This document shows, piece by piece, positions 3,800 to 23,527 of a stretch of 64,000 nt of DNA. The notes below the pieces were generated by a model, which saw nothing but the letters and a program-made list of their open reading frames with translations, made no database searches and was not told the DNA's origin. Made by a program: the position numbers and the translations under genes. Position 1 is the stretch's first letter; the number at the start of each line of letters is the position of its first letter. The stretch is taken from positions 265-64,264 of the forward strand of contig CAYPCX010000008.1 in the NCBI GenBank assembly GCA_964409365.1, given 5' to 3'. The stretch is from an uncultured Planctomycetia bacterium. GTDB lineage: Bacteria > Omnitrophota > Gorgyraeia > Tantalellales > Tantalellaceae.

Positions 3800-3836
3800 A
3801 GCGAGCGTAAGCGAGCGATGACACCTTGACACTCTC

Positions 3837-4481: not shown

Positions 4482-4520
4482 GGCATTCTCCCTTCAAACC
4501 TGCAACCTGAAACCTGCGAC
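4482..4520 (-). repeat. Five tandem heptamers (minus strand: TTGCAGG-TCGCAGG-TTTCAGG-TTGCAGG-TTT...) immediately upstream of the rpe RBS
   Basis: Plus strand aaacctgcaacctgaaacctgcgacctgcaacctgac. Period 7. Confidence 0.8.
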
Positions 4521-4532
4521 CTGCAACCTGAC

Positions 4533-5609
4533 TCACCTCTCGCTCATCATCATGTATACACGGTTGATATCGTCCAGGGTCACCACCCCTATTATCTCGC
4601 CCTTCCTTTTGACCGGCATCGCGTGGGTGCCGTATTTCTGCATGAGCTTCTGCACCTGGTCGAGCCGGGTCGAGACGTCCACCGCTGGAAAGTTCCTTCT
4701 CATTATGTCCCTGACGATCGCTTCCTTGCCTCTTTCGTGCACCCCGTACACGACCTCCCTGCGGGTGATGAAACCTACCATGTGCCCGTCCTCATCCATC
4801 ACCGGGTAGTCCTCCTGATGGGTATGGAATATAAGTTCCAGCACTTTCGACAGCTGCGCGTCCGGGCTTATATGGATAAAGTTGCGGGCCAGTATGTCGC
4901 GGATCGAATACCTTTTCAGGATCTCCCGCACCTCTACCTGCAGGCCCTCACTCGAAGCGGCCATGTATATGAACGCCGCGATCAGTAAAAGGAATATATG
5001 CCCGTACACTATCCCCACGTACGCGAAAAGAAGCGCGAATATGTGGCCCAGACGGACGGCTATCGCCGTGGCCTCCCTGTAGCTAATGCGGTACGACAGT
5101 ATCGCGCGCAGGACCCTGCCCCCGTCCATGGGGAAAGCGGGTATCATGTTGAACACCGCGAGCACGAGGTTTATCCAGTATATTTGCGCGAGCACGCTGA
5201 AATCGCCGGTGAACTTGGCCTGGCCGGTCAGTACCAGGAACGGATATATAAGCTTTTCCTTCCCGATAAGAAAATAGAGCGGGAAATACAGGACCAATAG
5301 AACCAGCACGTTAGACAACGGCCCCGCTATGGAGATGACGAGCTCCTGGAGCGGCTTGGTCGGGATCTCCGGCATCTGGGCCACTCCGCCGATCGGCAAA
5401 AGCGTTATCCGTTTCACTTTGATACCGAAATACGCGGCTGCCAGGCTGTGGCAGAGCTCATGGACCGTCACGAAAAAGAACACCCCGATTATAAGGACAA
5501 GTCCCTTAAGCCCCATGAGCAGGAAGAAAAAAAGCAAAAGCAGGAGAAAGGTGAAGTGAATATCGATATATATCCCGAACACCCTTGTCAGATGAAAAGT
5601 GCCCCTCAT
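4533..5609 (-). CDS. Site-2 protease family (M50) zinc metalloprotease with C-terminal CBS domain pair
   Basis: The N-terminus is polytopic and hydrophobic with HELCHSL (HExxH). The C-terminal half has two CBS-like repeats ([19 protein letters not shown] / [19 protein letters not shown]). ATGA overlap with the upstream M16 gene. Confidence 0.8.
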
Positions 5610-6877
5610 ACCTTGCCAAGCTCCTTCGTTATCCTGCTTTTGTCCCCGGGGGCGATGTTACCTATAACGGCCAGGTTCAGGTACCCGGGCCGGAAAATCC
5701 TCTCCGCGACCTTTTTGATATCCCCGGCCGTGACCTGATCCAGCATTTTCACGACGTACTTTACCTCGGGTATCTCCTTATGCACCATAAGCCGGTCCCC
5801 CAGCCACACCATCCTGGAAGAGGTGCCCTCCATGGCCAGGAGGAATTGCCCCTTGGCGTACTCCCTCGCCCGTTTCAACTCACCCCGGGTGACGCCTTTG
5901 TCCTTCAGCAATCTCAGCTGGTTGAGTACGGCTATGACCGACTTCATCGCGTTACTCGTATCTACCCCCGCGTGCACCACGACGTCGCCGACGTCGCTGT
6001 GCCGTTTGTACATCGAAGAGATATCGTAACACAGCCCCCGTTTTTCCCTAAGCTCATCGAAAAGCCTCGATGACATGTTCCCGCCGAGTATCACGTTCAT
6101 GAGCTTCATCGCGAAGCGCTCGTGAAGGTTCCTGTCAGGGGCGTGAAAACCCATCGCTATATGCGTCTGCTTTGTGTCTCCCCGGTGGAACGTGGTCTTC
6201 GGCCCTTTCTGGGATATCTTCGGTGTCTTGAAAGAACGGCTCTTTCCTTTCTTGACGCCGGCGAACTTGCGCGAGGTGGAAATGAAGAATTTTTCCGGGT
6301 CGACCTTGCCCGCGGCGACGACCGCTATGTTGCCTGGATAGTAACGCTCTTCCTTGAACTTGATTATATCGTTCCTGCTGAAACCCTTTACCGTGGTCAT
6401 GCTCCCGGTCAAGGGCCTCCCGAGGGGATCACCCGGCCACATGATCTGGCCCAGAAGCTCCATCACGTGCTCGGCGGGCTGGTCGCGGTACATCTTTATC
6501 TCCTCGCATATCACGAATTTTTCCCGCGAGATCTCCGCTTCGTCGAACTTCGGGTTAAGCACCATATCGCCCAGTATCTCCATCCCGAGCTCCATGTATT
6601 TGGACGGGACTTTAACCATGTAACAGGTCACCTCGTCCGCCGTGAAACCGTTAAAGGAGCCGCCCACGCCCTCGATCGACTGTTTGAGGTCCATCGCGTC
6701 GCGGCTGAGCGTCCCCTTAAAGAGCATGTGTTCGATAAGATGGCTTATTCCGCTCTGCTTCGCGGCTTCATAACGCCCTCCAACGCCTATCCACACCCCC
6801 AGGGACACTGACGACATCCCCGGCATGGTAGAGACGACCATTTTCAACCCGTTCTTCGTGCTTTTTTTCTTATACAA
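5606..6877 (-). CDS. M16 family (pitrilysin/insulinase-like) zinc peptidase
   Basis: The 423-aa ORF has the inverted zinc motif [11 protein letters not shown] (HxxEH) and an M16-like N-terminus, [29 protein letters not shown]. The apparent start is TTG (revcomp of caa at 6875-6877). An in-frame ATG at about 6841 would cut off conserved N-terminal residues. Confidence 0.8.
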
Positions 6878-6878
6878 T

Positions 6879-6920
6879 TTCCCGTCCTCTGTTTTCTGTT
6901 ATCTGCCTTCTGTCATCTGT
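6879..6920 (-). repeat. Five to six tandem heptamers (minus strand AAAACAG-ATGACAG-AAGGCAG-ATAACAG-AAAACAG) upstream of the M16 peptidase start
   Basis: Plus strand cctctgttttctgttatctgccttctgtcatctgtttt. Period 7. Confidence 0.8.
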
Positions 6921-7332
6921 TTTCCAAGCTATCCAGATATCCCTGCAGTATCAACTGCGCCGCGAGCTTATCTATCACTTTTTTCCGCTTGTTCCTTGTC
7001 ATGTCGGCCGCGAGCATGACGTCCTCGGCTTCTTTGGTGCTAAGGCGTTCGTCCCACAATTCTACCGCAAGACCCGTCTTCTCTTTTAACTTCTCCGCGA
7101 AGGCCCTGCAGTCCTTTGCCCTTTCCCCCATCGTCCCGTCCATGTTAACGGGAAGGCCTACCACTATCTTTTCTATGCCGAGCTCTTTTATGACCTCAGT
7201 GATGCGTCCTATGGCGACGTCATCGCTTCTTCGCAGGACTTTTCCTTTTCCCTGAGCCAGCGTCAGCGTTGTATCGCTGACAGCTAAACCGATATATTTC
7301 GTGCCAACGTCAAGGCCGAGAATTCGTGACAT
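6913..7332 (-). CDS. ruvX: Holliday junction resolvase-like RuvX/YqgF (putative pre-16S rRNA nuclease)
   Basis: The 139-aa ORF starts MSRILGLDVGTKYIGLAVSD, matching the RNase H-fold YqgF N-terminal motif with the catalytic Asp. Confidence 0.85.
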   Translation of the reverse strand: MSRILGLDVGTKYIGLAVSDTTLTLAQGKGKVLRRSDDVAIGRITEVIKELGIEKIVVGLPVNMDGTMGERAKDCRAFAEKLKEKTGLAVELWDERLSTKEAEDVMLAADMTRNKRKKVIDKLAAQLILQGYLDSLENR

Positions 7333-7353
7333 ATATCCTTTATTTATAGTGGT

Positions 7354-8154
7354 TTAGGAGTGGACAGCATCGGCAATGGATTTAGCGAACGATCCTATCC
7401 TGGCCACTGCCCTGCTCTTGTCGGGCAGACTTTTCTCAAGCACCTTAATTATCGCGCTTCCGACTATCACCCCGTCGGAGACACCGGCAATATCCCTGGC
7501 CTGGGCGGGTCTGGATATGCCGAACCCGACACAGACAGGTTTCGCCGTAACCTTCTTTATCTTCCTGACGTCACTCTTTAACTGCTTCGATAACTGTTCT
7601 CTCGCGCCCGTCACGCCGGTAAGCGAAACATAATAAATGAACCCCCTCGAGACCCTGGAGATCTTCCTGAACCTTTCCACGGGCGTGGTGGGAGCGGCGA
7701 GAAGTACCAGGTAAAAATCTTCCTTATCCGCAAAACGCTTCATCTGGTCCGACTCCTCCATCGGAAGATCGGGCACGATAATACCGTCGGCTCCGCATTT
7801 CTTGGCGTCTTTTATAAAATGTTCTATCCCGTAGTTGAAGACGATATTGTAATACGTCATGAAGACTATCGGGGTGCTCACGCTGCGCCTTAAGTCCTTC
7901 ACCATGTTCAGCACTTTCCTCACCGTGCAGCCCGCTTTGAGCGAACGCTGTACCGCCCTCTGTATCGTGGGACCGTCGGCGAGGGGGTCCGAAAAAGGTA
8001 TGCCAAGCTCTATTACATCGGCGCCCGCCTTCGCCAGCGCCGAAACGATCCTTTTCGTGGTCCCTATATCCGGATCGCCCGCCGTTATGTACGGCATGAA
8101 CGCCTTCTTCTTCTCTTTTTTCAGCCTTTTGAACGTCTCATCAATTCTATTCAT
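7354..8154 (-). CDS. trpA: Tryptophan synthase alpha subunit
   Basis: MNRIDETFKRLKKEKKKAFMPYITAGDPD...GADVIELGIPFSDPLADGPTIQ. The start was chosen at MNRIDETF (8154). The ORF extends 4 codons further to 8166. A GAGGAGGA RBS precedes 8154. Confidence 0.9.
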   Translation of the reverse strand: MNRIDETFKRLKKEKKKAFMPYITAGDPDIGTTKRIVSALAKAGADVIELGIPFSDPLADGPTIQRAVQRSLKAGCTVRKVLNMVKDLRRSVSTPIVFMTYYNIVFNYGIEHFIKDAKKCGADGIIVPDLPMEESDQMKRFADKEDFYLVLLAAPTTPVERFRKISRVSRGFIYYVSLTGVTGAREQLSKQLKSDVRKIKKVTAKPVCVGFGISRPAQARDIAGVSDGVIVGSAIIKVLEKSLPDKSRAVARIGSFAKSIADAVHS

Positions 8155-8185
8155 CGTCCTCCTCAACCTTACACGTGAGACCTGA

Positions 8186-9376
8186 CTACATGTTCTCCCT
8201 GATTATGTCTATATCTTTGTCACCACGCCCCGACAGGCAGAATATGATGATATCCTTCTTCCGTGTTTTTTTGGCAAGCCGCGTAAGGTGGTAAGCGGCG
8301 TGCGCCGGTTCCAGCGCCGGGATGATGCCTTCCGTCTCGGAAAGCAGCCTCACGCCTTCGAGCGCTTCCTTGTCGATCACCGATACGTATTCGGCCCTGC
8401 CCATTCGTTTGTAATAGGAGTGTTCCGGGCCGACACCGGGATAATCCAGCCCCGCCGACACCGAATGCGCCAGCTTCACCTGCCCGTCGCTGTCCTCGAG
8501 CAGGAAGCTTTTGCTCCCGTGCAGGACGCCTACCCTTCCCCGCATCAGGGCGGCGGCGTGGTGTCCGGAGCTCATGCCCAGCCCGGCGGCCTCGACGCCG
8601 ATGAACTTGACCTTCCTGTCGCCGTAGAACGGGTGAAAAAGACCTATGGCATTACTGCCCCCGCCGACACAGGCTACCAGGTAGTCGGGAAGCCTCTTCT
8701 CTTTCTTCAACACCTGCCGTTTCGCTTCTCTTCCCAGTACCGCCTGGAAATCCCTTACCATCATCGGGTAAGGATGCGGACCGACAACGGACCCTATTAT
8801 GTAATGGGTATCCCTGACGTTAGTGACCCAATCCCTTATCGCCTCGTTGGTGGCGTCTTTCAGGGTGCATGAACCGCTCTCCACAGGAATGACCCTGGCG
8901 CCCAGGAGCTTCATCCTGAACACGTTGAGGTTCTGCCTCCTGATGTCCTCGGTACCCATGTAAACGTCGCATGAAAGGCCGAAGAGAGCCGCCACCGTGG
9001 CCGTCGCCACGCCGTGCTGGCCGGCGCCGGTCTCGGCTATAAGGCGTTTCTTCCCCATCGCCACGGCGAGGAGCGCCTGGCCGATCGTGTTATTTATCTT
9101 ATGGGCGCCCGTGTGGAGCAGGTCCTCGCGCTTTATGTATATCCTGCCGCCGCCGAGCTTCTTAGTAAGCTTTTCCGCGAAATAAAGCGGCGTGGGCCTG
9201 CCGGCGTATTCCTTAAGATAATAATCGAGCTTCTTCTTGAAAGCGCGGGACGAGCCTATTTTCTTGTAAGCGGCCGTCAGTTCCTTCAACGCGGTCATAA
9301 GGGTCTCGGGGACGTATTCCCCGCCGAATATCCCGAAATAACCTCTTTTATCGGGTAGTTTACGCTTTTTTCGCAT
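8186..9376 (-). CDS. trpB: Tryptophan synthase beta subunit
   Basis: [14 protein letters not shown]-terminus, HTGAHKINN with the PLP lysine, and GGGSNAIG. 396 aa. Confidence 0.95.
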
Positions 9377-10028
9377 TTTCTATGAACTCCTTTATTTTAT
9401 CCTTGTCCTTTTTCCCGGGGGCCTTCTCCACGCCGCTGGAGACATCCACCCCGTACGGGCGGACGGCACTTACCGCCTCGGCCACGTTCTCCGGCGCCAG
9501 ACCTCCCGCTATAAAGAACGGTTTCCTTATCTTCTCTTTCTCTCTCGCCAGGACTTCCCAGTCGAACCTTTCGCCGCTCCCTCCGGCCACCTCCGGATGA
9601 TAAGTATCGAACACGAAAAACTCGGCGTCCATGTAATCATCCGGTATGTATGCCCCGACCGGCAGTATATCGTCCCCGACCTTGAACACCTTTATGATCT
9701 TCACCCGCGGGTGGTCTTTTTCCTCCAGCGTTTTTTTGAGCTCGCTGCAGTAGGCGGGCTTCTCGCCGCCGTGAAGTTGTACAAGGTCCAGGCCGCATTC
9801 CGCGACCGTCCCGGCCACGACGTCTATTTCTTCGTCCTTGAATAGCCCTACAGTGCTTACGCTTTCTCTGTGACGACCGAGACCATCTATAACACCCTTG
9901 GCCGTCCCGCTGTCTACCGCGCGGGGAGTCCCTCCGATAAAGATGAAACCCAGAAGATCCGCTCCGCGTTCGCAGGCCTCGACCGCGTCCTCAAGATTAG
10001 TGATCCCGCAGATCTTCACCTTTGTCAT
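9360..10028 (-). CDS. trpF: Phosphoribosylanthranilate isomerase
   Basis: [10 protein letters not shown]... PRAI TIM-barrel signature. The start was placed at the second ATG (10028). The 7 upstream codons (to 10049) coincide with an ATGACAA heptamer repeat tract. The 3' end overlaps trpB by 17 nt. Confidence 0.85.
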
Positions 10029-10056
10029 TTGTGCTTTGTCATTTGTCATTAAAATT
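10029..10056 (-). repeat. Tandem heptamers ATGACAA x3-4 upstream of / overlapping the trpF start
   Basis: Plus strand tttgtcatttgtgctttgtcatttgtcatt. Confidence 0.8.
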
Positions 10057-10836
10057 TTATTCCCTCATCAATTCCCTGACCTTGTCCCCGATATTCTCCG
10101 CCCTCATGAACGTCTCGCCTATCAGGACGGCGTTCACCCCCAGGCTCTTCAGGAACATCACCTGTTCGTAGCTTTCTATGCCGCTCTCCGAGACTATCAC
10201 CTTCGTCTCGGGTATCAGCCGGATAAGCCGCTGCGTCGTGGATATATCCACGTCAAAATTCGTAAGGTCCCTGTTGTTGATCCCTATGATGGACGCGGGC
10301 GAGGCAAGCGCCTTCTCTATATCCTCCTCGTTGTTCACCTCTACCATAACGTCGATACCGAGTTCCTTGGCGATACCATGGTAACGACCAAGCTCATCCT
10401 GCGTGAGGATGTGCGCTATCAGGAGTATCGCGTCGGCCCCGTGCGCCCCCGCCTCGTATATCTGGTACTCATCTATTATGAAATCCTTCCTCAGAACGGG
10501 CAGCGTCACCCTTTCCTTCACTATGTCCAGGTACTCGAGTTTGCCGTCGAAGAACCGCTCGTCGGTAAGCACGCTTATGGCGCCGGCGCCCGCCGCCTGG
10601 TAAGCCAGGGCTATCCTGGCCGGGTCGAACTCCCCGGGACGTATCACTCCCCTGGAAGGAGACCTTCTTTTTATCTCCGCTATGAGATTTATATGGCCTT
10701 TGCGGGAAATGTTCCTTTTGAACGCGCTCCTGATGGCCTGGGCTTCCGCCTTCTGTTTGAGCTCGTTCAAAGGGGCTTCCCTGCGGGCCTGTTCGACCTC
10801 GCGCTTTTTTTCCTCCACTATTTTTCCCAATATCAC
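10057..10836 (-). CDS. trpC: Indole-3-glycerol phosphate synthase
   Basis: MILGKIVEEKKREVEQ...INLIAEIKRRSPSRG...LIGETFMRAENIGDKVREL. 259 aa. ATGA overlap with the trpD stop. Confidence 0.9.
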   Translation of the reverse strand: MILGKIVEEKKREVEQARREAPLNELKQKAEAQAIRSAFKRNISRKGHINLIAEIKRRSPSRGVIRPGEFDPARIALAYQAAGAGAISVLTDERFFDGKLEYLDIVKERVTLPVLRKDFIIDEYQIYEAGAHGADAILLIAHILTQDELGRYHGIAKELGIDVMVEVNNEEDIEKALASPASIIGINNRDLTNFDVDISTTQRLIRLIPETKVIVSESGIESYEQVMFLKSLGVNAVLIGETFMRAENIGDKVRELMRE

Positions 10837-11867
10837 TTGTTTTTTCCCTTCCCTTTCGTGATCCTGATCAACTGGTCGAGCTTTCGCATGGCGCTGCCGG
10901 AATCGATCGACCGCGCCGCCAGCCTCACGCCTTCTTTAAAGCCGCGCGCCTTACCCGCGGCAACAAGGGCGACAGCCGAATTCATCAGCACGACATCCCG
11001 TTTCGCCCCTTTCCTGCCGGAAAGGACCCCGCGGACCATAGCGGCGTTCCCCCTGACCGTGCCTCCCTTTATGGCCTTCAGTGAGGCCTTTTTCACACCG
11101 AACGTCGCGGGAGAGACGTTGTAGGTAGTGACCCTTCCTCCCTTGAGCTCGCTGATCCTGGTCTTGCCGACCACCGAGACCTCATCAAGCGGGCCGTCGC
11201 CGTGCACCACGAACGCGCGTCTGGATCCCAGTCTTTTGAGGACCCTGGCCAGTATTTCCGTCAGTCCCGGGTCATATACGCCCAGCACCTGGTACTTAGC
11301 CGACGCCGGGTTGCACAAGGGGCCCAGGATATTGAATATCGTCCTTATGCCTATCTCCCTGCGCGGACCGATGGCGTAACGCATCGCCCCGTGATAAAGC
11401 GGCGCGAAAAGGAACCCTATCCCTACTTTGTTGACGCATCTCTCGGTCGCTTTCACGGGCGTATCAAGTTTCACGCCGAGCTCCTCAAGCACGTCGGCGC
11501 TCCCGCAATGGCTGGAGACGCCCCTGTTGCCGTGCTTTGCCACCTTGACCCCGCAGCCGGCCACGACAAAAGCCGCGGTCGTGGAAACGTTGAAAACCTT
11601 CGTCCCGGTACCGCCCGTCCCGCAGGTATCAAGAACGGAGGCCGACCTGCCGGATACCTTTATCTTCGCGGCCTTTTCACGCATGACCTTCGCGGCACCC
11701 GTTATCTCGTCCACCGTCTCCCCCTTCATACGCAGGGCGGTTATGAAAGCCCCTATCTGAGAAGGGGCGGCTTTTCCGCCCATTATCTCGTTAAAAACGG
11801 AACGGGTCTCGTTCTCGGTAAGGTCTTCAAACCCGACTACTTTACTGATCGCTTTCTTTATTTTCAT
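10833..11867 (-). CDS. trpD: Anthranilate phosphoribosyltransferase
   Basis: DTCGTGGTGTKVFNVSTTAAFVVAGCGVKVAKHGNR, the glycine-rich PRPP-binding signature. 344 aa. Confidence 0.9.
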   Translation of the reverse strand: MKIKKAISKVVGFEDLTENETRSVFNEIMGGKAAPSQIGAFITALRMKGETVDEITGAAKVMREKAAKIKVSGRSASVLDTCGTGGTGTKVFNVSTTAAFVVAGCGVKVAKHGNRGVSSHCGSADVLEELGVKLDTPVKATERCVNKVGIGFLFAPLYHGAMRYAIGPRREIGIRTIFNILGPLCNPASAKYQVLGVYDPGLTEILARVLKRLGSRRAFVVHGDGPLDEVSVVGKTRISELKGGRVTTYNVSPATFGVKKASLKAIKGGTVRGNAAMVRGVLSGRKGAKRDVVLMNSAVALVAAGKARGFKEGVRLAARSIDSGSAMRKLDQLIRITKGKGKNK

Positions 11868-11876
11868 GTTCCCCCG

Positions 11877-12446
11877 TCAATTTATCCCAATAAAGTTCCT
11901 GAGAAGGTTCATTCCTTCTTCCGTCAGTATGGACTCGGGATGGAACTGCACGCCCCATACGGGCCTGTTCACATGCTTCACTCCCATTATCTCTTCCTCG
12001 TCTTCCGTCCATGCCACCATCTTCAGCGGCTCCTTCAGCGATCCCGGCTCGATGATAAGCGAATGGTACCTCGTGGCCGTGAACGGTGACGGGACTCCCT
12101 TGAAAATACCTTCGCCGGTATGCGCCACCGGGCTCACCTTGCCGTGCATTATCCTTGACCCCCTTACGACCTTTGCCCCGTAAACTTCCGCTATACACTG
12201 GTGGCCCAGGCAAACACCGAGTATAGGCACCCTGTCGGCGAAGACCCGTATCACTTCTTTCGATATGCCGGCATCACCGGGCCTGCCGGGACCCGGCGAT
12301 ATGACTATTCTTTCAGGCGAAAGCTTCTCTATCTCTTTTAGGGTGATCTTGTCGTTGCGGTAGACCTCTAACCTTTCGCCAAGCTCTCCCAGATACTGGA
12401 CGAGGTTATACGTGAACGAATCGTAGTTGTCGATCACAAGTATCAT
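11877..12446 (-). CDS. trpG: Anthranilate synthase component II (glutamine amidotransferase)
   Basis: MILVIDNYDSFTYNLVQYLGELG...GVCLGHQCI...HPES, a class-I GATase triad. The start is at the internal ATG 12446, which overlaps the trpE stop (ATGA). The 54-codon upstream extension of the raw ORF lies inside trpE and was rejected. Confidence 0.85.
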   Translation of the reverse strand: MILVIDNYDSFTYNLVQYLGELGERLEVYRNDKITLKEIEKLSPERIVISPGPGRPGDAGISKEVIRVFADRVPILGVCLGHQCIAEVYGAKVVRGSRIMHGKVSPVAHTGEGIFKGVPSPFTATRYHSLIIEPGSLKEPLKMVAWTEDEEEIMGVKHVNRPVWGVQFHPESILTEEGMNLLRNFIGIN

Positions 12447-13921
12447 CCGAGACCTTCCTCGGCGAACTCTATCGCTTTTATCATGGCCATCGCCTTGTTC
12501 ATGGTCTCCTGGTACTCCCTTACGGGGTCGGAATCGAGAACTATTCCGGCGCCCGCCTGGATGTACGCCGTGTCGCCGCACATGACTATAGTCCTTATCG
12601 TTATGCACAGGTCGATGTTCCTGGAAAAACTGAAATACCCGACGCTGCCGGCGTAAGGGCCCCGTCTTATGTTCTCCAGCTCGTCGATTATTTCCATCGC
12701 CCTGACCTTCGGGGCGCCCGTCACGGTACCGGCCGGGAACGTCGCCCTTACCAGGTCGAAAACGTCCTTATCTTCTCTCAGTTTGCCCACGACATCGCTC
12801 ACTATGTGCATGACGTGCGAATACCTCTCGATCCTCATGACCTCCCGCGGCTTTACGCTTGAATATTCGCACACCCTGCCGATGTCGTTCCGGCCCAGGT
12901 CGAGGAGCATTATATGCTCGGCCCTTTCCTTCGGGTCGGCCAGAAGCTCTTTCTCGAGCCGCAGGTCTTCTTCCTCGTCCTCGCCGCGCGGGCGCGTGCC
13001 CGCTATAGGCCTTACCTCGACAAGCCCGTCCTCGCACCTGACAAGTATCTCGGGGGACGACCCGATCAGCCGGTACTCGCCGAGCTTCAGGTAGAACATG
13101 TAAGGCGACGGGTTGATGGACCTGAGAGCCCTGTATATCGAGAAAGCGTCCGCTTTCGTCCGCCTTTTCAGCCTCTGCGAAAGGACGGTCTGGATAATAT
13201 CGCCCGCCCGTATATATTCTTTCGCGGCCTCTACTATCTTGCCGAACCCTTTCTCCGTGAAATTGGATTCGATCTCCGTTGACTTCGCGTTAGGCGGCGT
13301 TTCCCCGCCGCCCGCTTCCTTCCTTTGCAGCTTATCGATTATATTATCTATTTTCGCGCAGGCCTTGTCGTAAGCCTCTCGCGGGTCGTCTTTCTCCACG
13401 AGGGAATTCGAGACGACTTTTATCTTATGGTCGACATGGTCGAAAATAAGGATAGTGTCCGTGAACATGAACTGCATGTCGGGTATATCGAAATCGTCGC
13501 GGTTCTCATCCGGTATATCCTCGATGAACCGGACCATGTCATAGCCCATGTAACCGACCAGCCCCCCGCAGAACCTCGGCAGCCCTTTTACGCTGACGTA
13601 ACGGAACCTGTCCATGAACTTCTTGATCTCGCCTATGGGGTCTTCCCCGGCCTTGTAGGAATCCACTTTATCGCCGCGCCTCACGCTGATATTGTTCCCC
13701 TTGCTCTCGAACACGACGGCCGGTTTGCTGCCGAGGAAAGAATAACGGGCCATGTTCTCGCCCCCCTCGACGGACTCGAGCAGATAGCTGAAGTTCCCCT
13801 CGTCTATCTTCATGAAGGCCGAAAGCGGCGTCTCGAAGTCCGCGAGAAGCTCCCTGTAGACCGGGATCACGTTACCCTTCTTCGCAAGCTCTATGAATTT
13901 TTCCTTATCCGGATAATACAT
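12443..13921 (-). CDS. trpE: Anthranilate synthase component I
   Basis: The 492-aa ORF has the chorismate-binding enzyme C-terminal core (GTRPRG...AGTVTGAPKVRAMEII...RGPYAGSVGYF...GAGIV). Confidence 0.9.
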   Translation of the reverse strand: MYYPDKEKFIELAKKGNVIPVYRELLADFETPLSAFMKIDEGNFSYLLESVEGGENMARYSFLGSKPAVVFESKGNNISVRRGDKVDSYKAGEDPIGEIKKFMDRFRYVSVKGLPRFCGGLVGYMGYDMVRFIEDIPDENRDDFDIPDMQFMFTDTILIFDHVDHKIKVVSNSLVEKDDPREAYDKACAKIDNIIDKLQRKEAGGGETPPNAKSTEIESNFTEKGFGKIVEAAKEYIRAGDIIQTVLSQRLKRRTKADAFSIYRALRSINPSPYMFYLKLGEYRLIGSSPEILVRCEDGLVEVRPIAGTRPRGEDEEEDLRLEKELLADPKERAEHIMLLDLGRNDIGRVCEYSSVKPREVMRIERYSHVMHIVSDVVGKLREDKDVFDLVRATFPAGTVTGAPKVRAMEIIDELENIRRGPYAGSVGYFSFSRNIDLCITIRTIVMCGDTAYIQAGAGIVLDSDPVREYQETMNKAMAMIKAIEFAEEGLG

Positions 13922-13969
13922 CCCTCTTCCCTTTTTCCTTGTTACTTTTTCCTTTTTCCTTGTTACTTT
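13922..13969 (-). repeat. 21-bp tandem duplication (three heptamer phases: AAAAAGT-AACAAGG-AAAAAGG, x2) upstream of trpE
   Basis: Plus strand cctttttccttgttactttttcctttttccttgttacttttt. Confidence 0.8.
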
Positions 13970-14362
13970 TTACTTGTCACTTTTTTTATATACGTCTTTC
14001 GGGTCGAATACCCGTTCCTCTTCGATAACGAACTCTCCGCTTTTGCCCATCTTCCTGAAATAACAGCTGAAGTATCCCTCGTGACAGGCCGCGCGCTCCT
14101 GCTTGACCCTGAAAAGAACGGAATTGTCGGCGCAGTCTATGAACACTTCCTTCACTGTCTGAACGCATCCGGAAGTCTCCCCCTTCAGCATGACGCGCCC
14201 CTTCGAGCGGCGGAAGACGTATATCTTCCCTTCGGCAAGCGTCTTCTCCAGAGCCTCCCTGTCCATGTAACATAAGGTAAGCACGCGAGAAGAATCCGCG
14301 TCCTGTATGACAGCGGGCACCAATCCCTTTTCGTCAAAATTGAGCGTATCCACGAACGACAT
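13970..14362 (-). CDS. hisI: Phosphoribosyl-AMP cyclohydrolase
   Basis: The 130-aa ORF has GLVPAVIQD...[14 protein letters not shown]...[10 protein letters not shown]. It is monofunctional HisI with no fused HisE part. Confidence 0.85.
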
Positions 14363-14365
14363 ATC

Positions 14366-15833: not shown

Positions 15834-15864
15834 ATCTTTACACTACTCCTTTTACCGTTACGGT

Positions 15865-16473: not shown

Positions 16474-16506
16474 AATAGTTATGAGTTATGAGTTTTTAGT
16501 TTTTAG
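16474..16506 (+). repeat. Tandem heptamer tract AGTTATG-AGTTATG-AGTTTTT-AGTTTTT on the 3' side of the four-helix-bundle gene
   Basis: Direct reading of the intergenic sequence aatagttatgagttatgagtttttagtttttag. It is inverted relative to the AGTTNTT tract at 16870-16913. Confidence 0.8.
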
Positions 16507-16857
16507 CTACTTTAGTGATCGCTTTAAACCGCTTAACATTTTCGATATTTCAACCAACGTATCTTTAAAGTCATTAAATTTAGACTCACATATATATTGT
16601 TGATTAAAAGAAACCTCAAGAATCGCTGCACACTCAAAAACAGAACCTCTTGCTATGTCGAGAAAACGTTTAAATTCTTTACTTGCTCTTGACGATCCCT
16701 CAGCGATGTTTAGCAAAATAGACACAGCGGCTCTTCTCAACTGCTGCGTCAGGCCAAACAATTCCTCTTTTGGAAAATCCCTGGTTAGCAAATAAATATT
16801 ATCTACTAAATCGCTTGTTTTCCTATATATGTCTAATTTTTCAAAAGTGAACTTCAT
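16507..16857 (-). CDS. Four-helix-bundle protein of the 23S rRNA intervening-sequence protein family (TIGR02436-like, Avd-like fold), inserted between hisH and hisB
   Basis: MKFTFEKLDIYRKTSDLVDNIYLLTRDFPKEELFGLTQQLRRAAVSILLNIAEGSSR...FLDIARGSVFECAAILEV, the characteristic family motifs. It is markedly AT-rich (about 37% GC versus about 57% for neighbours). The start was chosen at ATG 16857. The ORF track begins 4 codons upstream at a TTG. Confidence 0.75.
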   Translation of the reverse strand: MKFTFEKLDIYRKTSDLVDNIYLLTRDFPKEELFGLTQQLRRAAVSILLNIAEGSSRASKEFKRFLDIARGSVFECAAILEVSFNQQYICESKFNDFKDTLVEISKMLSGLKRSLK

Positions 16858-16869
16858 TTCCCAACCCAA

Positions 16870-16913
16870 AACTAACAGCTAACAACCAAGAACTAATAAC
16901 TAATAACTAACAA
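16870..16913 (-). repeat. Tandem heptamer tract (minus-strand reading AGTTGTT-AGTTATT-AGTTATT-AGTTCTT-GGTTGTT-AGCTGTT) on the 5' side of the four-helix-bundle gene
   Basis: Plus strand actaacagctaacaaccaagaactaataactaataactaacaact. Together with 16474-16506 it forms imperfect terminal inverted repeats around the AT-rich gene. Confidence 0.8.
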
Positions 16914-17552
16914 CTACAATATCCCCTTGCTCGAAGGCACTTCACCCGTCCTGCGCGGGTCGAGACGCGTAGCCCTGTCCAAAGCCACGCCAAGCGCCTT
17001 GAAGACCGCCTCCAGAAAGTGGTGCATGTCCCCTTCGCCCGCTATTTCGATGTGAAGGTTCATGCGTATGTTCTTGGCGAAACTCTCAAGAAGGTCCTTC
17101 GCCAGGTCTATCGAATACCCTTCCTTGGCTTCCACCGATATCGGATAACCGGTCGAGGTCTTCTCGCTGAAACTGAAAGCGTCCCTGTTAGAGACATCCA
17201 CAAGGACCTTCGCGCTGGCCATGTCCATCGGCACCTCGGCCGAGGCCATACGGGTTATGCCTTTGCAATCGCCCAGCGCTTTCTTGAACGCCTCTCCCAG
17301 GGCTATGCCGATATCCTCGTTCAGGTGATGCCTGTCCACGTGTGTATCGCCTTCCGCCTTTATCTTGATATCAAAATACCCGTGATAGGTAAAAAGCGTC
17401 AGCATGTGGTCGAGGAAACCGATCGAGGTCGAAATGTCACTCTGGCCCGTACCATCGATGTTCAGCAAAGGTATCTCGATCCGGGTCTCCTTGGACTTCC
17501 TTTCATAACTCGTTTTTCTTGCCGCTGTTTGCTTTTTCTCAAAAATAGCCAT
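16914..17552 (-). CDS. hisB: Imidazoleglycerol-phosphate dehydratase
   Basis: RKSKETRIEIPLLNIDGTGQSDISTSIGFLDHMLTLFTYHG...DTHVDRHHLNEDIGIALG, the IGPD metal-binding histidine motifs. A GGAGGCGG RBS precedes the ATG. Confidence 0.9.
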   Translation of the reverse strand: MAIFEKKQTAARKTSYERKSKETRIEIPLLNIDGTGQSDISTSIGFLDHMLTLFTYHGYFDIKIKAEGDTHVDRHHLNEDIGIALGEAFKKALGDCKGITRMASAEVPMDMASAKVLVDVSNRDAFSFSEKTSTGYPISVEAKEGYSIDLAKDLLESFAKNIRMNLHIEIAGEGDMHHFLEAVFKALGVALDRATRLDPRRTGEVPSSKGIL

Positions 17553-17588
17553 ACCGCCTCCATGTCAACCTGTTACCTGTTACCTGAA
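17553..17588 (-). repeat. Heptamer repeats (minus strand GTTCAGG-TAACAGG-TAACAGG) upstream of the hisB RBS
   Basis: Plus strand cctgttacctgttacctgaac. Confidence 0.75.
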
Positions 17589-18812
17589 CTATTCACATCT
17601 TACTTTAACGGAATCCCAGTGGTGTTCCATCTTCTCCAGTCCCGCCATCTCTTTCACCCACTCGGCCGAATTGCAAAGCGCCTTGCGGGAATAAGAAATG
17701 ACATGCGAGCTTTTGAAAAAATCCCTCAAATTCAGACCCGATGAATAACGCGCCGTCCCTCCTGTCGGCAGCACGTGGCTCGGCCCCGCGATATAATCGC
17801 CTATCGCCACCGGCGTGTACTGGCCGAGGAATATCGCCCCGGCATTCGTTATGTGCTTCAGCACCCTGTTCGGCGACTTCACCATGAGCTGCAGGTGTTC
17901 CGGGGCTATCATGTTCGATACCCTCGCCGCCTCCTCGAGGTTCTTCACCTTGATGATATAACCCTTGATGTCCGGGTCCCTGTAAAGGGCGTCGAACACT
18001 TTTTTAGAGGGCGTTACCAGCACCGACAGGCCCTTGTGGTGTTCCGCCTGCGCCATCAGGTCCCTCTTGAGGTAATCAAGGTTCGCATGATGGTTGGCGA
18101 TAACAAGCACCTCGCTCGGCCCCGCCAGCATGTCTATGTCGCAGTACCCGAAGACCTGCCGTTTCGCCTCGGTAACATACTCGTTGCCGGGACCGACTAT
18201 CTTGTCCACCTTCGGTATGGTCTTCGTCCCGAACGCGAGGGCGGCTACCGCCTGGGCGCCGCCTACTTTGTATATCTCGTCGACCTTCAGGAGGTTAGCC
18301 ACGACCAGTATATGCGGATCTATACTCTGGTACTTGTTGGGCGGAGAGACCATGACGATCTTTTTCACCCCCGCGATCCTGGCGGGCAGGACGGTCATGT
18401 ACACGCTGGAAGCCAGCGGGGCCGTCCCGCTGGGGACGTACACTCCCACTTTCTCTATCGGCTCGAACTTCTCCCCGAGCAATATGCCCGACTCATGCCT
18501 GATAGACCAGGACTTCGGTATCTGGTTCTTGTAGAACTTGTTGATGTTCCTGATTATCTCCTTCAGCGTGTTGACCATCTGGGGGCTCATGTCCTGGTAC
18601 GCCCCGCTTATCTCGGCTTCGGTCACCCGCAGGTCCTTCCTCTTCATGTTCACCCTGTCGAACCTGCCGGTATACCGTATAACGGCGTTGTCCCCTTCTT
18701 CCCGGACCTTCCCGATTATCGTGGCTACTTTCTTCTGCAGGCGTGCCCCGCCCTGTCCCCTGCGGTCCACCATGTTCTCGAACACCCTGCTGCCGACTAT
18801 CAAACGTTTCAT
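17589..18812 (-). CDS. hisD: Histidinol dehydrogenase
   Basis: The 407-aa ORF has the HDH family core (VGVYVPSGTAPLASSV...AGPSEVLVIA...AQAEHHKG...IAPEHLQL). The start is 1 nt after the alaS stop. Confidence 0.9.
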   Translation of the reverse strand: MKRLIVGSRVFENMVDRRGQGGARLQKKVATIIGKVREEGDNAVIRYTGRFDRVNMKRKDLRVTEAEISGAYQDMSPQMVNTLKEIIRNINKFYKNQIPKSWSIRHESGILLGEKFEPIEKVGVYVPSGTAPLASSVYMTVLPARIAGVKKIVMVSPPNKYQSIDPHILVVANLLKVDEIYKVGGAQAVAALAFGTKTIPKVDKIVGPGNEYVTEAKRQVFGYCDIDMLAGPSEVLVIANHHANLDYLKRDLMAQAEHHKGLSVLVTPSKKVFDALYRDPDIKGYIIKVKNLEEAARVSNMIAPEHLQLMVKSPNRVLKHITNAGAIFLGQYTPVAIGDYIAGPSHVLPTGGTARYSSGLNLRDFFKSSHVISYSRKALCNSAEWVKEMAGLEKMEHHWDSVKVRCE

Positions 18813-18813
18813 A

Positions 18814-21513
18814 TCATCCCTTTCTTGCGATCACGTCTTTCGCCTGTTGAATGGCCTTCTCAAGGCCCCGGGGGTTCTTTCCTCCGGCCTGGGCGAACGT
18901 CTCTTTTCCGCCCCCGCCGCCTCCGATGTTGCCGGCGATGCCGTTCAGTATCTCCCGGGCGTCCAGCCCCTTATCCACCAGATCCGCCGTAACGGCACAA
19001 ATGAGGAACGCTTTGTCCCCGCTCGTCCCGCCGAGCAGTATGACGCCGGAATCCACCTTTTTCTCGAGATAGGCCGCGGCCCTGCGCAAGAGCTGCATAT
19101 CCATACCTTCCAGTACGCGGGCGACGAGTTTGACTCCCCCCGCCGTCTCCGGCTCGGCAAGGACCTTATCGAGTCCTGCCTTGACCTCGTCAAAAGCGCC
19201 GGCCGCCCGTTCTTTCTGTTCTTTTTTAGCGGCCTTCTGCAGCCTTTCGCATTCGTTCCGAAGCGCAGGTTTTATTTTCTCGTCAAAATCGCGTATCGCG
19301 CCGCTGTCCATTTTTCTGTCGCCGGACAGGATGTCACCGATAAGTTTTTGGACATCCTCGCTTATGCCGGGGCCGGCATCCCCGGCCAGGTGCCTGCACT
19401 CAGCTATTTTTTCATCAAGCGTTTTCCGCAACCACCCGACGGCGTTATCCCCGGTAAGGGCCTCTATGCGCCTTATGCCGCTGGCAACGGAACTTTCGGC
19501 CACTATCTTCATGATCTTTATCTCGCCGGTATTATCCACGTGCGTGCCGCCGCAAAGTTCTTTCGATTCATCTCCTACGCTTACTACACGCACCGTGTCG
19601 CCGTATTTCTCGCCGAAGAATGAAAGCGCCCCCTCTTCCCTGGCCTCTTCTATTCTTTTTACTTCCTTGCAAACAGGGATACTTTCTTCTATCCAGCCGT
19701 TCACCAGGTCCTCGACCTTCCTCAGTTCCCTGTCGGACAGCTTCTTCATGTGAGTAAAGTCGAAGCGGAGATGTTTTTCATCGACCAAAGACCCCGATTG
19801 CTTCACGTGGTCGCCCAGAACCCGCCTTAGGGCCGCCTGGAGAAGATGCGTAGCCGTGTGGTTCAATGCTGTCTTTTGCTTTTTATCCGCATCCAGACTG
19901 AGCACTACTTCGTCGCCCCTGGCGAGAGTGCCTTTCTTTATAAAGGCCACCAACACTTTGCGCCCGCCCGCATCAAAGGTGTTCAAGACCCTCGCTTCAA
20001 CGCCCTCTTTTTCTATATGGCCGGTATCGCCTACCTGCCCGCCGGCCTCGGCGTAGAACCTCGTGCTCTGGGGAGAGGTCACGATCTCGGCCCTTTGCCC
20101 TTTTTCCGCCTTCTCGGCGGGGTCGTCCCCTATAAGTATGAATTCCACTTTCGTTTTGAGCGGAAGTTCGTCCGATCCGGGAGGCACGGGCACGCCGGAA
20201 AACTTATCGGGCTTGAATATGAAATCCTCGACCAGATCGCTTCCCCTGCGGGACTGCTCTTTCCTTTCTTCCATAAAGCGTTCAAACCCCTCCAGGTCCA
20301 GGGGCACATCCGCTTCTTCCTCTATTACATCAACAGGCAGACCGTACGTATCCACCAGCTTGAAGATCTCCTCCCCCTTGAGCACCTTCGGCCTCTTCGT
20401 GAGCATCTCGTTCAGTATAGGCAGCGCCGCCTCGAGCGTGTCATTGAACCTTCTTTCCTCTTCCTCGACGATAGCGCTGATATGTTCTCTTTTCTCTTCC
20501 AGTTCGGGATACGCGTCCTTCATCGCCCTTACCACGGCCGGGACGATGTTGTACAGGAACGCCCCCTTTCTTCCGCTTTTCAGGTAGGCGCGCCGTATCA
20601 GTTTTCTCACCACGTAGCCGCGCTTCTCGTTGGACGGGGAAACACCGTCCGCGACAGCGAACGTTACCGCCCTTATGTGGTCGGCTATGAGGTGCAGATC
20701 TTCCCGGGACGCCTCCTTCTTGCCAATGTGCTTTTTTATCTCGCCGATCATCGGGGCAAAAAGATCCGTATCAAAGTTGGTACGCACTCCCTGCATTACC
20801 GACGCCATGCGCTCAAGGCCCATTCCGGTATCGATATTCTTGCTCGGGAGCGGGTCGAGCGAGCCGTCGGGCTTTCTCTCGAACTGCGTGAACACGAGGT
20901 TCCACACCTCGACGAACCTGCCGCAATCGCACGCGGGTCCGCATTCCTTCTTACCGCACCCGGCATCTTCTCCCCAGTCATAGAATATCTCCGAGCACGG
21001 GCCGCAGGGGCCGTTCGGGCCCTGTGTCGGCGCGTCCGCCGGCCAGAAATTATCGTGTTCCCCGAGCTTGACTATTTTTTCCGCGGGCACGCCTACATCG
21101 TTAAGCCATATCCCGTAAGCTTCGTCATCGCCTTCATAAACAGACACCCACAGGCGCTTTTCCGGGAGGCCCATCACCTTTGTCATGAACTCCCAGCCCC
21201 AGCTTATAGCTTCCTTCTTAAAATAGTCCCCGAAGGAAAAGTTGCCCAGCATCTCGAAAAAGGTATGGTGCCTGGGCGTCTTTCCCACGTTCTCCAGGTC
21301 ACCGGTGCGCAGGCATTTCTGGCAGGAAGCGGCCCTCGTGAAAGTTATGTTCCTGCCCATGAACTGTTCCTTGAACTGGTTCATGCCCGCCCCGGTGAAA
21401 AGAAGCGTGGGGTCGTCCCTCGGGACAAGAAGATCGCTGGGCACTACCGTATGGCCCTTGTCCCTGAAGAATTCAAGGTATTTCCGCCTTATCTCTCCCG
21501 CTGTCATCCCCAT
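18814..21513 (-). CDS. alaS: Alanine--tRNA ligase
   Basis: The 899-aa ORF has a class-II aaRS N-terminus (FFRDKGHTVVPSDLLVPRDDPTLLFTGAGMNQFK), the editing-domain HxxxH/CGGTH motifs (HTATHLL...CGGTHV) and a Gly-rich C-terminal DHHA1-like tail. Confidence 0.95.
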   Translation of the reverse strand: MGMTAGEIRRKYLEFFRDKGHTVVPSDLLVPRDDPTLLFTGAGMNQFKEQFMGRNITFTRAASCQKCLRTGDLENVGKTPRHHTFFEMLGNFSFGDYFKKEAISWGWEFMTKVMGLPEKRLWVSVYEGDDEAYGIWLNDVGVPAEKIVKLGEHDNFWPADAPTQGPNGPCGPCSEIFYDWGEDAGCGKKECGPACDCGRFVEVWNLVFTQFERKPDGSLDPLPSKNIDTGMGLERMASVMQGVRTNFDTDLFAPMIGEIKKHIGKKEASREDLHLIADHIRAVTFAVADGVSPSNEKRGYVVRKLIRRAYLKSGRKGAFLYNIVPAVVRAMKDAYPELEEKREHISAIVEEEERRFNDTLEAALPILNEMLTKRPKVLKGEEIFKLVDTYGLPVDVIEEEADVPLDLEGFERFMEERKEQSRRGSDLVEDFIFKPDKFSGVPVPPGSDELPLKTKVEFILIGDDPAEKAEKGQRAEIVTSPQSTRFYAEAGGQVGDTGHIEKEGVEARVLNTFDAGGRKVLVAFIKKGTLARGDEVVLSLDADKKQKTALNHTATHLLQAALRRVLGDHVKQSGSLVDEKHLRFDFTHMKKLSDRELRKVEDLVNGWIEESIPVCKEVKRIEEAREEGALSFFGEKYGDTVRVVSVGDESKELCGGTHVDNTGEIKIMKIVAESSVASGIRRIEALTGDNAVGWLRKTLDEKIAECRHLAGDAGPGISEDVQKLIGDILSGDRKMDSGAIRDFDEKIKPALRNECERLQKAAKKEQKERAAGAFDEVKAGLDKVLAEPETAGGVKLVARVLEGMDMQLLRRAAAYLEKKVDSGVILLGGTSGDKAFLICAVTADLVDKGLDAREILNGIAGNIGGGGGGKETFAQAGGKNPRGLEKAIQQAKDVIARKG

Positions 21514-21540
21514 ATCATCGATCGCTGCTCGCTTGGGGCG

Positions 21541-22581
21541 TCAGCCCGCGGCAGTGAGGACCTTTCTGACGTCTTTTTCTATCCTGTCCAGGAGTTTCGG
21601 GTTCTCTTTAAGGTATATCCGGGCGTTCTCCTTCCCCTGGCCTATCTTCTCATCGCCGTACGAAAGCCACGTTCCCGTCTTCGTGATCACGCCCACTTCT
21701 TCCCCGATATCTATGACGCTCGATGAACGGGATATGCCTTCGTCGAACATGATATCGAACTCCGCCTGCTTGAACGGCGGGGCGAGCTTGTTCTTCACGA
21801 CCTTGCCCCTGACGCGGCTTCCCATTACCTGGTCGCCTTTCTTGAGAGAAGCTATCCTCCTCAGGTCTATCCTGACCGACGCGTAGAACTTAAGCGCCCT
21901 GCCGCCGGTGGTCGTCTCGGGGTTCCCGAACATCACGCCTATCTTCATCCTGATCTGGTTGATAAAGATGACGCAAGTTCTTGACTTGCTTATGGCCCCG
22001 GTCAGTTTCCTGAGAGCCTGGCTCATGAGCCGGGCCTGGAGGCCGACGTGCGAATCGCCCATATCTCCCTCTATCTCTTTCCTCGGCGTAAGGGCGGCCA
22101 CCGAGTCGATGACTATCACGTCCACGGCGTTACTGCGTACCAGCGTCTCCGCGATCTCCAGCGCCTGTTCGCCGTTGTCCGGCTGCGAGACCAGGAGCTC
22201 ATCGAGATTTACGCCTATCTTTTTCGCGTAGGTCGGGTCGAACGCGTGCTCGGCGTCGATAAAAGCCGCTACCCCTCCCTTTTTCTGCGCGTTGGCCAGG
22301 ACGTTCAGCGTGAGCGTGGTCTTCCCGCTGGATTCAGGGCCGAATATCTCGACCACCCTGCCCCTGGGGACGCCGCCGACGCCGAGCGCCATGTCCAGGG
22401 CGATAGACCCGGTGGATATGCCTTCCACCTGGGCGTGGTACCCCTTTCCCATCTTCATTATCGCGCCGTCGCCGAAGTCTTTCTGTATCTTGCTGAGCGC
22501 CAGTTCGAGCGATTTGTCTTTCCCGGCGCCTTTTGACACCGCCTTTTCGTTCTCAGATCTTGTTTTCGCTTTCTTTGCCAT
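21541..22581 (-). CDS. recA: Recombinase RecA
   Basis: MAKKAKT...[28 protein letters not shown] (Walker A)...[12 protein letters not shown]. The start was set at ATG 22581, preceded by GGAGGT 6 nt upstream. The raw ORF extends 14 codons further. Confidence 0.95.
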
Positions 22582-22650
22582 GGTGACCTCCGGATATTTA
22601 TTTAGGATGGATACAATTAGCACCTAAAACATTTCTATATAAACAGCACT

Positions 22651-22678
22651 ATTATAATAGCAGTTCGGTTTTTGTAAA
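22651..22678 (-). promoter_or_regulatory. Sigma70-like promoter for recA: -35 TTTACA, 16-bp spacer, -10 TATAAT (minus strand). The -10 is embedded in the palindrome CTATTATAATAG.
   Basis: Minus strand ...cctTTACAaaaaccgaactgctatTATAATagtgc... about 70 nt upstream of the recA ATG. The -10 is a 6/6 match and the -35 a 5/6 match. Confidence 0.5.
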
Positions 22679-22740
22679 GGCATTTCTTACGAGTATAGAA
22701 AATCAAGTGTCAAGCAACAAGTATCAGGTAACCGGTTTCC

Positions 22741-22830
22741 AGACAACTCTGGTCACTGGTTACTGGTTCCTCAATACTCCACCCTCGATACTCCTCCCTT
22801 GATACTCTACACTCAATACTCGATACTCTA
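22741..22830 (-). repeat. Repeat cluster upstream of the recA promoter: heptamers CTGGTCA-CTGGTTA-CTGGTTC then five copies of [CT][AG]ATACTC at 7/14-bp spacing
   Basis: Plus strand ggtcactggttactggttcctcaatactccaccctcgatactcctcccttgatactctacactcaatactcgatactc. Confidence 0.75.
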
Positions 22831-23455: not shown

Positions 23456-23477
23456 TTTCCGCCTTTTCAACCCCCAA

Positions 23478-23523
23478 CCTTATTTACACACCCGATGTAT
23501 ACACATCGGGTGTGTAAATAAGG
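23478..23523. repeat. Perfect 46-bp palindrome (21-bp arms, 4-nt centre): CCTTATTTACACACCCGATGT-atac-ACATCGGGTGTGTAAATAAGG
   Basis: Verified base by base. It sits 4 nt downstream of the CinA-like stop and about 20 nt upstream of the thpR start. No U-tract follows on the minus strand, so it is not a canonical intrinsic terminator. Confidence 0.9.
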
Positions 23524-23527
23524 TCCG

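Follow-up and report, generated by a model that had tools for sequence, protein, structure and literature searches.

What are the tandem heptamer arrays that stand between the genes of an uncultured member of the Omnitrophota, and what, if anything, do they do? The question is posed by a 64,000-nt stretch of contig CAYPCX010000008.1 (positions 265 to 64,264; assembly GCA_964409365.1), analysed here at its full length and called the window, in which an initial annotation had noticed such arrays upstream of rpe, the M16 peptidase gene, trpF, trpE, hisB, a gene for a four-helix-bundle protein, and recA. All window genes lie on the minus strand. The names of rpe, the CBS/M50 protein, the M16 peptidase, ruvX and trpA-B-F-C-D-(G)-E are backed by NCBIfam, as are those of hisI-F-A-H, the four-helix-bundle protein (TIGR02436), hisB, hisD, alaS, recA and thpR. 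The arrays fill intercistronic spacers of one long co-directional run, recA-alaS-his-trp-ruvX-M16-rpe. We find that they are real, specific to a period of 7 nt and restricted to non-coding spacers. The most interesting outcome lies slightly beside the original claim: a cassette in which the four-helix-bundle gene is enclosed by a stem of inverted arrays.

Tandem Repeats Finder recovered period-7 arrays at all of the places named in the initial annotation, nine in number, and with the copy numbers that it had given. Across the whole window we counted 8 period-7 runs with a score of at least 10, against 0.13 expected and a maximum of 1 in first-order Markov simulations. The same scan gave no run at periods 4, 5, 8, 9, 10 or 11, one at period 6 and three at period 12; after removal of runs that are truly of period 1–3, the period-6 run was gone and two period-12 runs were left, both in coding sequence. 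Other short periods are nearly absent, and the strict 7-nt period is far beyond chance, as had been proposed. The spacers (802 nt) hold 8 period-7 runs of score 8 or more, compared with 0.07 across 2000 shuffles (maximum 3), and the ~62 kb of coding sequence, 40 kb of which is one giant open reading frame (ORF), holds a single weak run (33131–33147). Such tracts are not equally frequent in coding or shuffled sequence, and therefore the period-7 observation stands. A comparison set of 80 unrelated trpE loci (1.24 Mb) contained 27 period-7 runs. Our survey of the host genome covered ~34 kb of sequence other than the giant gene: arrays occupy 8 of the 15 window spacers and two more within the adjoining 10 kb, and they fall into at least six unit families. 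The giant ORF itself (24039–63941, minus strand) encodes 13,300 aa within the window, runs off its end and has almost no period-7 arrays; the gene call on the source contig measures 16,071 aa and has no recorded Pfam hit, and a counterpart at the same position in a relative (L168) measures 11,637 aa.

Seven of the nine arrays are solo, with no inverted partner within 3 kb. All features described here are on the minus strand, and units are read on the coding strand. The rpe array, (CAGGTTG) x5 at 4497–4530 (4.9 copies by Tandem Repeats Finder), starts 2 nt past the stop codon of the CBS/M50 protease gene and stops 14 nt short of the rpe ATG; the Shine-Dalgarno (S-D) sequence AAGGGAG comes next. 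Upstream of the M16 peptidase gene, five to six units of ACAGANN (6888–6924; 5.3 copies) contain the TGA that ends ruvX, and CAGAGGA, the final unit, supplies the S-D sequence of the M16 gene, which starts with TTG at 6877. The trpE array, eight units of AAGTAAC/AAGGAAA (13930–13985; 6.6 copies, or 2.2 copies of a 21-nt unit), is 88% purine and unstructured; it begins in the final hisI codons, includes the TAA stop and extends into the trpE S-D sequence GAAGAGGG, which its last units furnish. The ruvX and hisI reading frames enter these two arrays by a few codons, and array units make up their stops, TGA and TAA. Between the hisD stop codon and the hisB S-D sequence GGAGG lie 2.7 copies of AACAGGT (17568–17586). 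The trpF array, (ATGACAA) x4 at 10021–10050 (4.3 copies of TGACAAA), sits between the trpC stop (10057–10059) and trpF and has three ATGs inside it. Although the ORF from the first ATG includes the array, family models of TrpF align only from residue 8–10 of this longest ORF, and the array is therefore probably leader. All gene callers choose the first ATG, within the array, as the trpF start.

Seven arrays stretch across an intercistronic spacer, beginning at the preceding stop codon and reaching the S-D sequence that follows, and seven of the nine end 0–17 nt ahead of a start codon or abut the S-D sequence. The earlier statement that the arrays lie in spacers abutting the ribosome-binding site or start holds for these seven and fails for the two arrays of the recA upstream region, CCAGTAA (2.9 copies, 22749–22768) and GAGTATC at 7/14-nt spacing (22769–22828), the latter placed 55 nt past the thpR stop codon. 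The recA start is the ATG at 22581, and a promoter-like site, TTTACA-16-TATAAT (22678–22651, minus strand), matches at 11 of 12 positions and is the best of a 20-kb region. Both arrays lie 70–150 nt upstream of this site and hence outside the 5′ leader to which they had been assigned. The recA-upstream spacers of relatives contain a TTTGCA/TTTACA ... TATAAT motif at a similar position. Overall, our scans for promoter-like and terminator-like sites performed at chance level, and the recA site alone is convincing; no such site was found by the scan in the other array spacers, which places the arrays within an apparent single long transcription unit. A CAG[GA] or ACAA core, thought to be present in most arrays, is held by only five of the nine.

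The two remaining arrays flank the four-helix-bundle gene (16507–16869, minus strand), a member of the family known as TIGR02436, PF05635 ('23S rRNA intervening sequence protein') or bAvd-like. Its ATG at 16857 gives a product of 116 aa that matches TIGR02436 with E = 3.5e-32, and homologues carry PF05635 and PF22296. The upstream array, (TAGTTNT) x7 at 16862–16916 (6.7 copies), opens with the hisB stop codon TAG. The array downstream of the gene, on the hisH side (16476–16506; 4.4 copies of AACTAAA/AACTCAT), reads TAACTCA TAACTCA TAACTAT and approaches the hisH ATG to 2 nt; its final full unit ends 1 nt short of that codon. It had gone unnoticed that these arrays are inverted complements of each other: positions 16476–16508 and 16877–16909 agree at 85% over 33 nt and are 368 nt apart. 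The predicted RNA fold, in both its minimum-free-energy and its centroid form, pairs the two arms and encloses the whole ORF. An insertion between hisB and hisH, the gene is missing from that spacer in all five syntenic relatives. A search of Rfam returned no family for the arrays, for window positions 1–25000 or for the five related loci. Judged by its sequence, the cassette is built like a classical 23S rRNA intervening sequence, but is located between hisB and hisH. For the same DNA, ENA gene calls (L081) omit the four-helix-bundle gene and JGI calls (L082) include it; a pipeline that misses this gene and callers that start trpF inside an array are a warning for annotation.

The same architecture recurs elsewhere. 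We examined 21 independent four-helix-bundle genes across loci. A tblastn search of plasmids from cultured bacteria yielded 23 records, and 14 of these were examined. Short tandem arrays stand beside 20 of the 21 genes and inverted arms beside 14, whereas the background chance of an array within 150 nt of a given point is ~0.4% (56 arrays in 2.06 Mb of loci). Arm energies from RNAduplex did not discriminate, since long GC-rich flanks pair with anything, and we therefore used an ungapped complementarity score, which is 14–31 for cognate arm pairs and ~7 for non-cognate ones. Three homologues (64–70% identical) on unrelated metagenome contigs lie in che, mnh/hyc and response-regulator operons; all three have TAGTTCG/TAGTTCA arrays upstream, and two have inverted ATGAACT/ACGAACT arrays downstream. 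A hidden Markov model search of the examined loci added three further genes on unrelated high-GC contigs, each with inverted arrays of its own unit (GAACCTA/TAGGTTC, ACAACAG/CTGTTGT and TGGAACA/TGTTCCA). Inverted arms are also present on plasmids of Nostoc edaphicum, Nostoc ATCC 53789, Picosynechococcus, Geminocystis, Anabaena sp. 90, Calothrix brevissima, Stanieria and Azospirillum lipoferum. Two Nostocales plasmids have an array upstream and a mere stub downstream; the arrays are direct in Pseudanabaena, Nostoc HK-01 and, with period 8, Gemmatirosa; and the gene of Calothrix PCC 7716 has no flanking arrays. Each cassette has a unit of its own and yet keeps its arms complementary, so that the arms co-vary across phyla, indicating either that pairing is maintained or that the arms are templated from one another.

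Two settings bear on what the cassette is. In Azospirillum lipoferum it lies inside 23S rRNA (positions 874–1670 of the large-subunit model) and the arms of its stem are heptamer arrays. This example is a true, classical intervening sequence, and since its stem is made of heptamer arrays, the window element amounts to an intervening-sequence-like cassette in a protein-coding operon. On three cyanobacterial plasmids (L182, L185 and L188), four-helix-bundle genes with the same flanking heptamer arrays lie between cas genes (cas10>cmr3, cas6>cas4). 23S_rRNA_IVP genes have been noticed inside cas loci before and were read as CRISPR-associated (PMC3936711); the flanking arrays suggest insertion rather than a CRISPR function. 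We found no paper in the open-access literature that links S23p/four-helix-bundle genes to heptamer repeats. Tentatively, and at odds that we would not call good, the arrays and the Avd-like four-helix-bundle genes might be one widespread cassette, resident across phyla in rRNA helices and operon spacers (his, che, mnh/hyc, nrd, cas), with a stem of co-varying inverted arrays. Solo arrays and hairpins that lack an ORF, including the short tandemly repeated repetitive sequences (STRR) of cyanobacteria and the window arrays, would then be its relics, precursors or landing sites, and the protein might act on the array duplex. If this were so, STRR-type heptamers would have an origin, and the 'CRISPR association' would be re-read as insertion.

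Arrays take three forms in the lineage of the window: solo arrays, arrays followed by an inverted copy to give a long hairpin, and inverted arrays that bracket a four-helix-bundle gene. The second form is best seen in the 10 kb of genome to the left of the window (L170), where a GAGTATC/AAGTAAC array and its inverted counterpart, parted by a short loop, make up a 241-nt spacer (12394–12634) that folds into one long hairpin with a z-score of −5.9; another spacer of this region holds GACAGAN x5. A related species (L165) has two such array/inverted-array hairpins, and its trpD>trpC spacer folds with z = −3.9. The window itself has, beyond the range covered by the initial annotation, a degenerate version in the rpe>pgm spacer (3759–3800, minus strand; reported by Tandem Repeats Finder as period 8), in which xAGTGTC/AAGTATC units are followed by inverted GACACTA units (z = −2.3).

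We gathered close relatives by searching with the HisB protein and then looking up exact protein matches. The named HisB relatives that match best all belong to Candidatus Omnitrophota and are at most 79% identical; in contig scans based on TrpE, the closest among the matches listed were 64–66% identical. Five related species keep the gene order cinA-thpR-recA-(recX)-alaS-hisD-B-H-A-F-I-trpE-G-D-C-F-B-A-ruvX-M16, and their arrays differ. In L165, five spacers (recX>alaS, hisD>hisB, hisB>hisH, hisI>trpE and trpD>trpC) hold seven period-7 arrays between them, built of units unlike those of the window (AAGTGAT, GGGTTAT, TCGTGGA). L166 has two: hisD>hisB holds GAGTATC x8, and hisI>trpE holds units of the GCAGTAA type. 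Arrays are few in L168 and L173, and L172 has none. Given that relatives use other spacers and other units, or have no arrays, we conclude that the arrays are a fast-turnover trait of the lineage and not conserved site-specific signals. GAGTATC arrays do recur, both in the same genome (L170 12398–12460) and in another species (hisD>hisB of L166 and L167).

Other features of these loci deserve mention. recX stands between recA and alaS in L165, L166, L168 and L173, and is missing in the window organism (21514–21540) and in L172. A 28-nt core, GGAGGATCCACRCCGGGCGGAGGGGCCC (minus strand), occurs as an exact pattern match with one R position in four Omnitrophota species (L166 10694–10721; L168 3047–3074 and 10698–10725; L172 4777–4804; L173 10678–10705). 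It sits at the tips of intergenic hairpins with variable stems, often in hisB>hisH, the spacer that holds the four-helix-bundle cassette in the window; the window lacks it, and Rfam has no match for it. The cinA>thpR spacer of the window (23471–23527) is an almost perfect 46-nt palindrome, CCTTATTTACACACCCGATGTGTATACATCGGGTGTGTAAATAAGG, and a related palindrome, ACATCGGGTGT, follows a tRNA-like sequence in L170 (16885–17034). In the thpR>recA spacer, two samples of a single Omnitrophota species are set apart by an insertion of 165 nt (L173 4094–4458; L174 4259–4458), which contains two imperfect copies of a ~60–70-nt block (TATTTATATATTATCTGGCTACGACGGA...). Two Nitrospirota loci have arrays within the coordinates of their TrpE matches, (AAAGTTC)n in L008 (9729–9759) and (GTTCAAN)n in L010 (7781–7807); these may be in-frame insertions or may mark a split gene.

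For the window, we put slightly better than even confidence in an explanation at the level of the transcript, in which fast-evolving STRR-type arrays serve as processing sites where they form stems and as spacers where they are solo. Arrays would grow, shrink and homogenise in 7-nt steps, presumably through slipped-strand mispairing, and would last only at sites that tolerate a unit not divisible by three. The paired cassette arms would form a long imperfect duplex that RNase III could cleave, which would cut the operon transcript in two and set the inserted gene free or insulate it. The solo arrays, being A- or purine-rich, unstructured and 19–60 nt long (19–56 nt for the intercistronic ones), would part the upstream stop codon from the next S-D sequence, and some supply both; fresh initiation would then replace tight translational coupling, and a change in array length would shift the relative output of the neighbouring cistrons.

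Several considerations weigh against this explanation. The RNA-level roles that it gives to the arrays of this organism are inferred from their sequence. Solo arrays have folding energies no different from those of their own shuffles, and therefore 'unstructured by design' cannot be claimed; according to the folding model, their low structure is a matter of composition, not of repeat order. Array position is not conserved among relatives, which is the expectation for neutral sequence. Since all genes are co-directional, effects of the transcription strand and of the replication strand are inseparable. Copy-number change is seen in relatives, but in short-read assemblies, which can collapse repeats: L166 and L167, from one species, are 99.9% identical over 20.6 kb and have 8 and 17 GAGTATC units, respectively, a 63-nt difference, and L177 and L179, which share another four-helix-bundle cassette, have 16 and 10 units. 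In the window population, seven assemblies (including ENA ERZ27256770 k141_351798) are identical across the arrays except for one mismatch in JGI contig L082, so that no array length variation was found at the consensus level, which hides minor length variants. The identity of the arrays in seven independent assemblies also led us to reject an assembly artefact. The slipped-strand origin raised in the initial annotation thus has indirect support, from whole-heptamer differences between near-identical strains of relatives, and none from the seven assemblies of the host. Of the mechanisms first proposed, only part is thus borne out.

These same data could describe a neutral by-product, that is, functionless microsatellites generated by a lineage-specific bias towards 7-nt slippage, which survive in spacers and would frameshift genes elsewhere. 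Among long simple sequence repeats, heptamers reportedly rank first in many prokaryotes, with polymerase slippage offered as the cause, in the summary of Mrazek 2007 that is given in PMC4679880, and copy number varies between near-identical assemblies. We regard this account as possible though not probable; it keeps a substantial share of our judgement because solo arrays fold like their shuffles and because neither position nor unit is conserved in syntenic relatives. It sits less well with the filling of 8 of 15 spacers in one operon run and with the repeated occupation of hisI>trpE, hisD>hisB and hisB>hisH in different species. Nor does it predict that units recur across loci and species, as GAGTATC and AAGTAAC/AAGTAAG do, or that among the 95 period-7 arrays in all loci the tetramers AACT/AGTT, AGTA/TACT, GAAC/GTTC and CAGT/ACTG are found in about twice as many units as in the shuffled expectation. 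The complementarity of the cassette arms, which survives a change of unit, speaks for selection or templating, at least for the cassette subset.

Length change of the kind seen between near-identical strains of relatives could also be adaptive, switching or grading downstream expression as in phase-variable or rheostat contingency loci, and a heptamer precedent exists in the hmw loci of Haemophilus influenzae (PMC12721329). We consider this improbable here. The downstream genes are rpe, the M16 peptidase gene, trpF, trpE, hisH, hisB and recA, with no surface, virulence or restriction functions among them, and the arrays lie between cistrons and not between promoter elements or within ORFs. Classical phase variation, one of the functions first proposed, finds no support in the seven population assemblies either, whose consensus arrays are identical in length.

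The main one of the original proposals, sites shared by an RNA- or DNA-binding protein, strikes us as more improbable still; a single sequence-specific reader of this kind could be a TRAP/HutP-like ring protein, a cold-shock protein or some global regulator. The strict period would suit it, as would the triplets that several arrays present at 7-nt intervals (AAG ahead of trpE, UAG-N4 ahead of the four-helix-bundle gene), which are formally HutP-like, and the CAG[GA] or ACAA of five arrays. A shared core is not supported, however: the window has at least six unrelated units (CAGGTTG, ACAGANN, ATGACAA, AAGTAAC/AAGGAAA, TAGTTNT, AACTNNN, AACAGGT, GAGTATC and CCAGTAA are the forms seen), and the two cassette arms present opposite RNA sequences, which together make a single reader unlikely. 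Orthologous leaders in relatives differ or have no arrays, one array is upstream of a promoter, and no regulator gene is evident in the window. A TRAP/HutP-like triplet reader, SARP-type heptamer sites, frameshift slippery heptamers and CRISPR-like arrays were rejected as candidates, the units being too diverse and the arrays contiguous, not spaced.

How, then, do the arrays relate to known repeats? Heptamers of the STRR class were reportedly described from cyanobacteria by Mazel et al. in 1990, and to our knowledge they have had no accepted origin or function since. The initial annotation was aware of no described element that matches the window arrays. This was mistaken, since intergenic heptanucleotide arrays are on record both as STRR (PMC2670836) and as TAACTGA repeats (PMC4679880). 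The window arrays are of the STRR or long-simple-sequence-repeat type, a known but poorly understood class that is new for the phylum Omnitrophota; we found no report of such arrays from this phylum in the open-access literature. Heptamer repeats are thereby extended to a phylum of which very few members have been cultured and which lacks genetics. In filamentous cyanobacteria, STRR form intergenic heptamer arrays, with hairpins between hupS and hupL that have been suggested to act on the stability of transcripts or on translational coupling (PMC2670836). The window arrays resemble them in their 7-bp tandem units, their many dispersed intergenic loci, their several unit families per genome and, in the window lineage too, their inverted arrays that form hairpins between operon cistrons. 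They differ in their units and in their host, STRR having been defined in heterocystous cyanobacteria.

TAACTGA repeats lie directly upstream of starts in Beggiatoaceae, cyanobacteria and Bacteroidetes, where the arrays end 1 nt before start codons and S1, Csp or CsrA have been proposed as readers (MacGregor 2015, PMC4679880). Like the window arrays, they are present in 2–6 copies upstream of starts, sometimes overlap the end of the upstream ORF and stand before housekeeping genes among others; the forward orientation, ending a few nt from the start, is shared by 7 of the 9 window arrays. The closest window units are TAACTCA/TAACTAT at 16476–16496, and the other window arrays are unrelated. 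One unit dominates the Beggiatoaceae genome whereas the window has at least six, and inverted pairs are rare there (one reported) but common here. The strand-symmetric tetramers enriched among the period-7 arrays amount to a weak shared theme and echo both TAACTGA and the STRR units that contain CAGT.

Two further systems match in part. The (ATCTTTC)n array in the 5′ untranslated region of H. influenzae hmw is one arm of a hairpin that RNase III cleaves, and expression is tuned by the number of repeat copies (PMC12721329). It shares with the arrays described here a heptamer array transcribed in the 5′ region as an arm of a long hairpin; it differs in belonging to a single virulence locus of a host-adapted pathogen and in having a G-rich, non-repeat partner arm. 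Multicopy elements of Geobacter metallireducens consist of 4–5 tandem heptamers, are dispersed and were proposed to be global regulatory sites (PMC2700814). In contrast to the window arrays, copy number and consensus (GGACCGG, MTYCTGA) are fixed in these elements, which also occur inside genes.

Intervening sequences with an S23p ORF are known from the 23S rRNA genes of Leptospira and Coxiella. The window cassette agrees with these in having a PF05635/TIGR02436 ORF enclosed by inverted repeats that pair as a long stem, and departs from them in its position, in hisB>hisH and outside rRNA, where it would be a candidate for excision by RNase III. Its architecture ties together three things that are mostly dealt with apart, namely STRR-like repeats, 23S rRNA intervening sequences and the 'four helix bundle protein' genes that are scattered through operons and cas loci.

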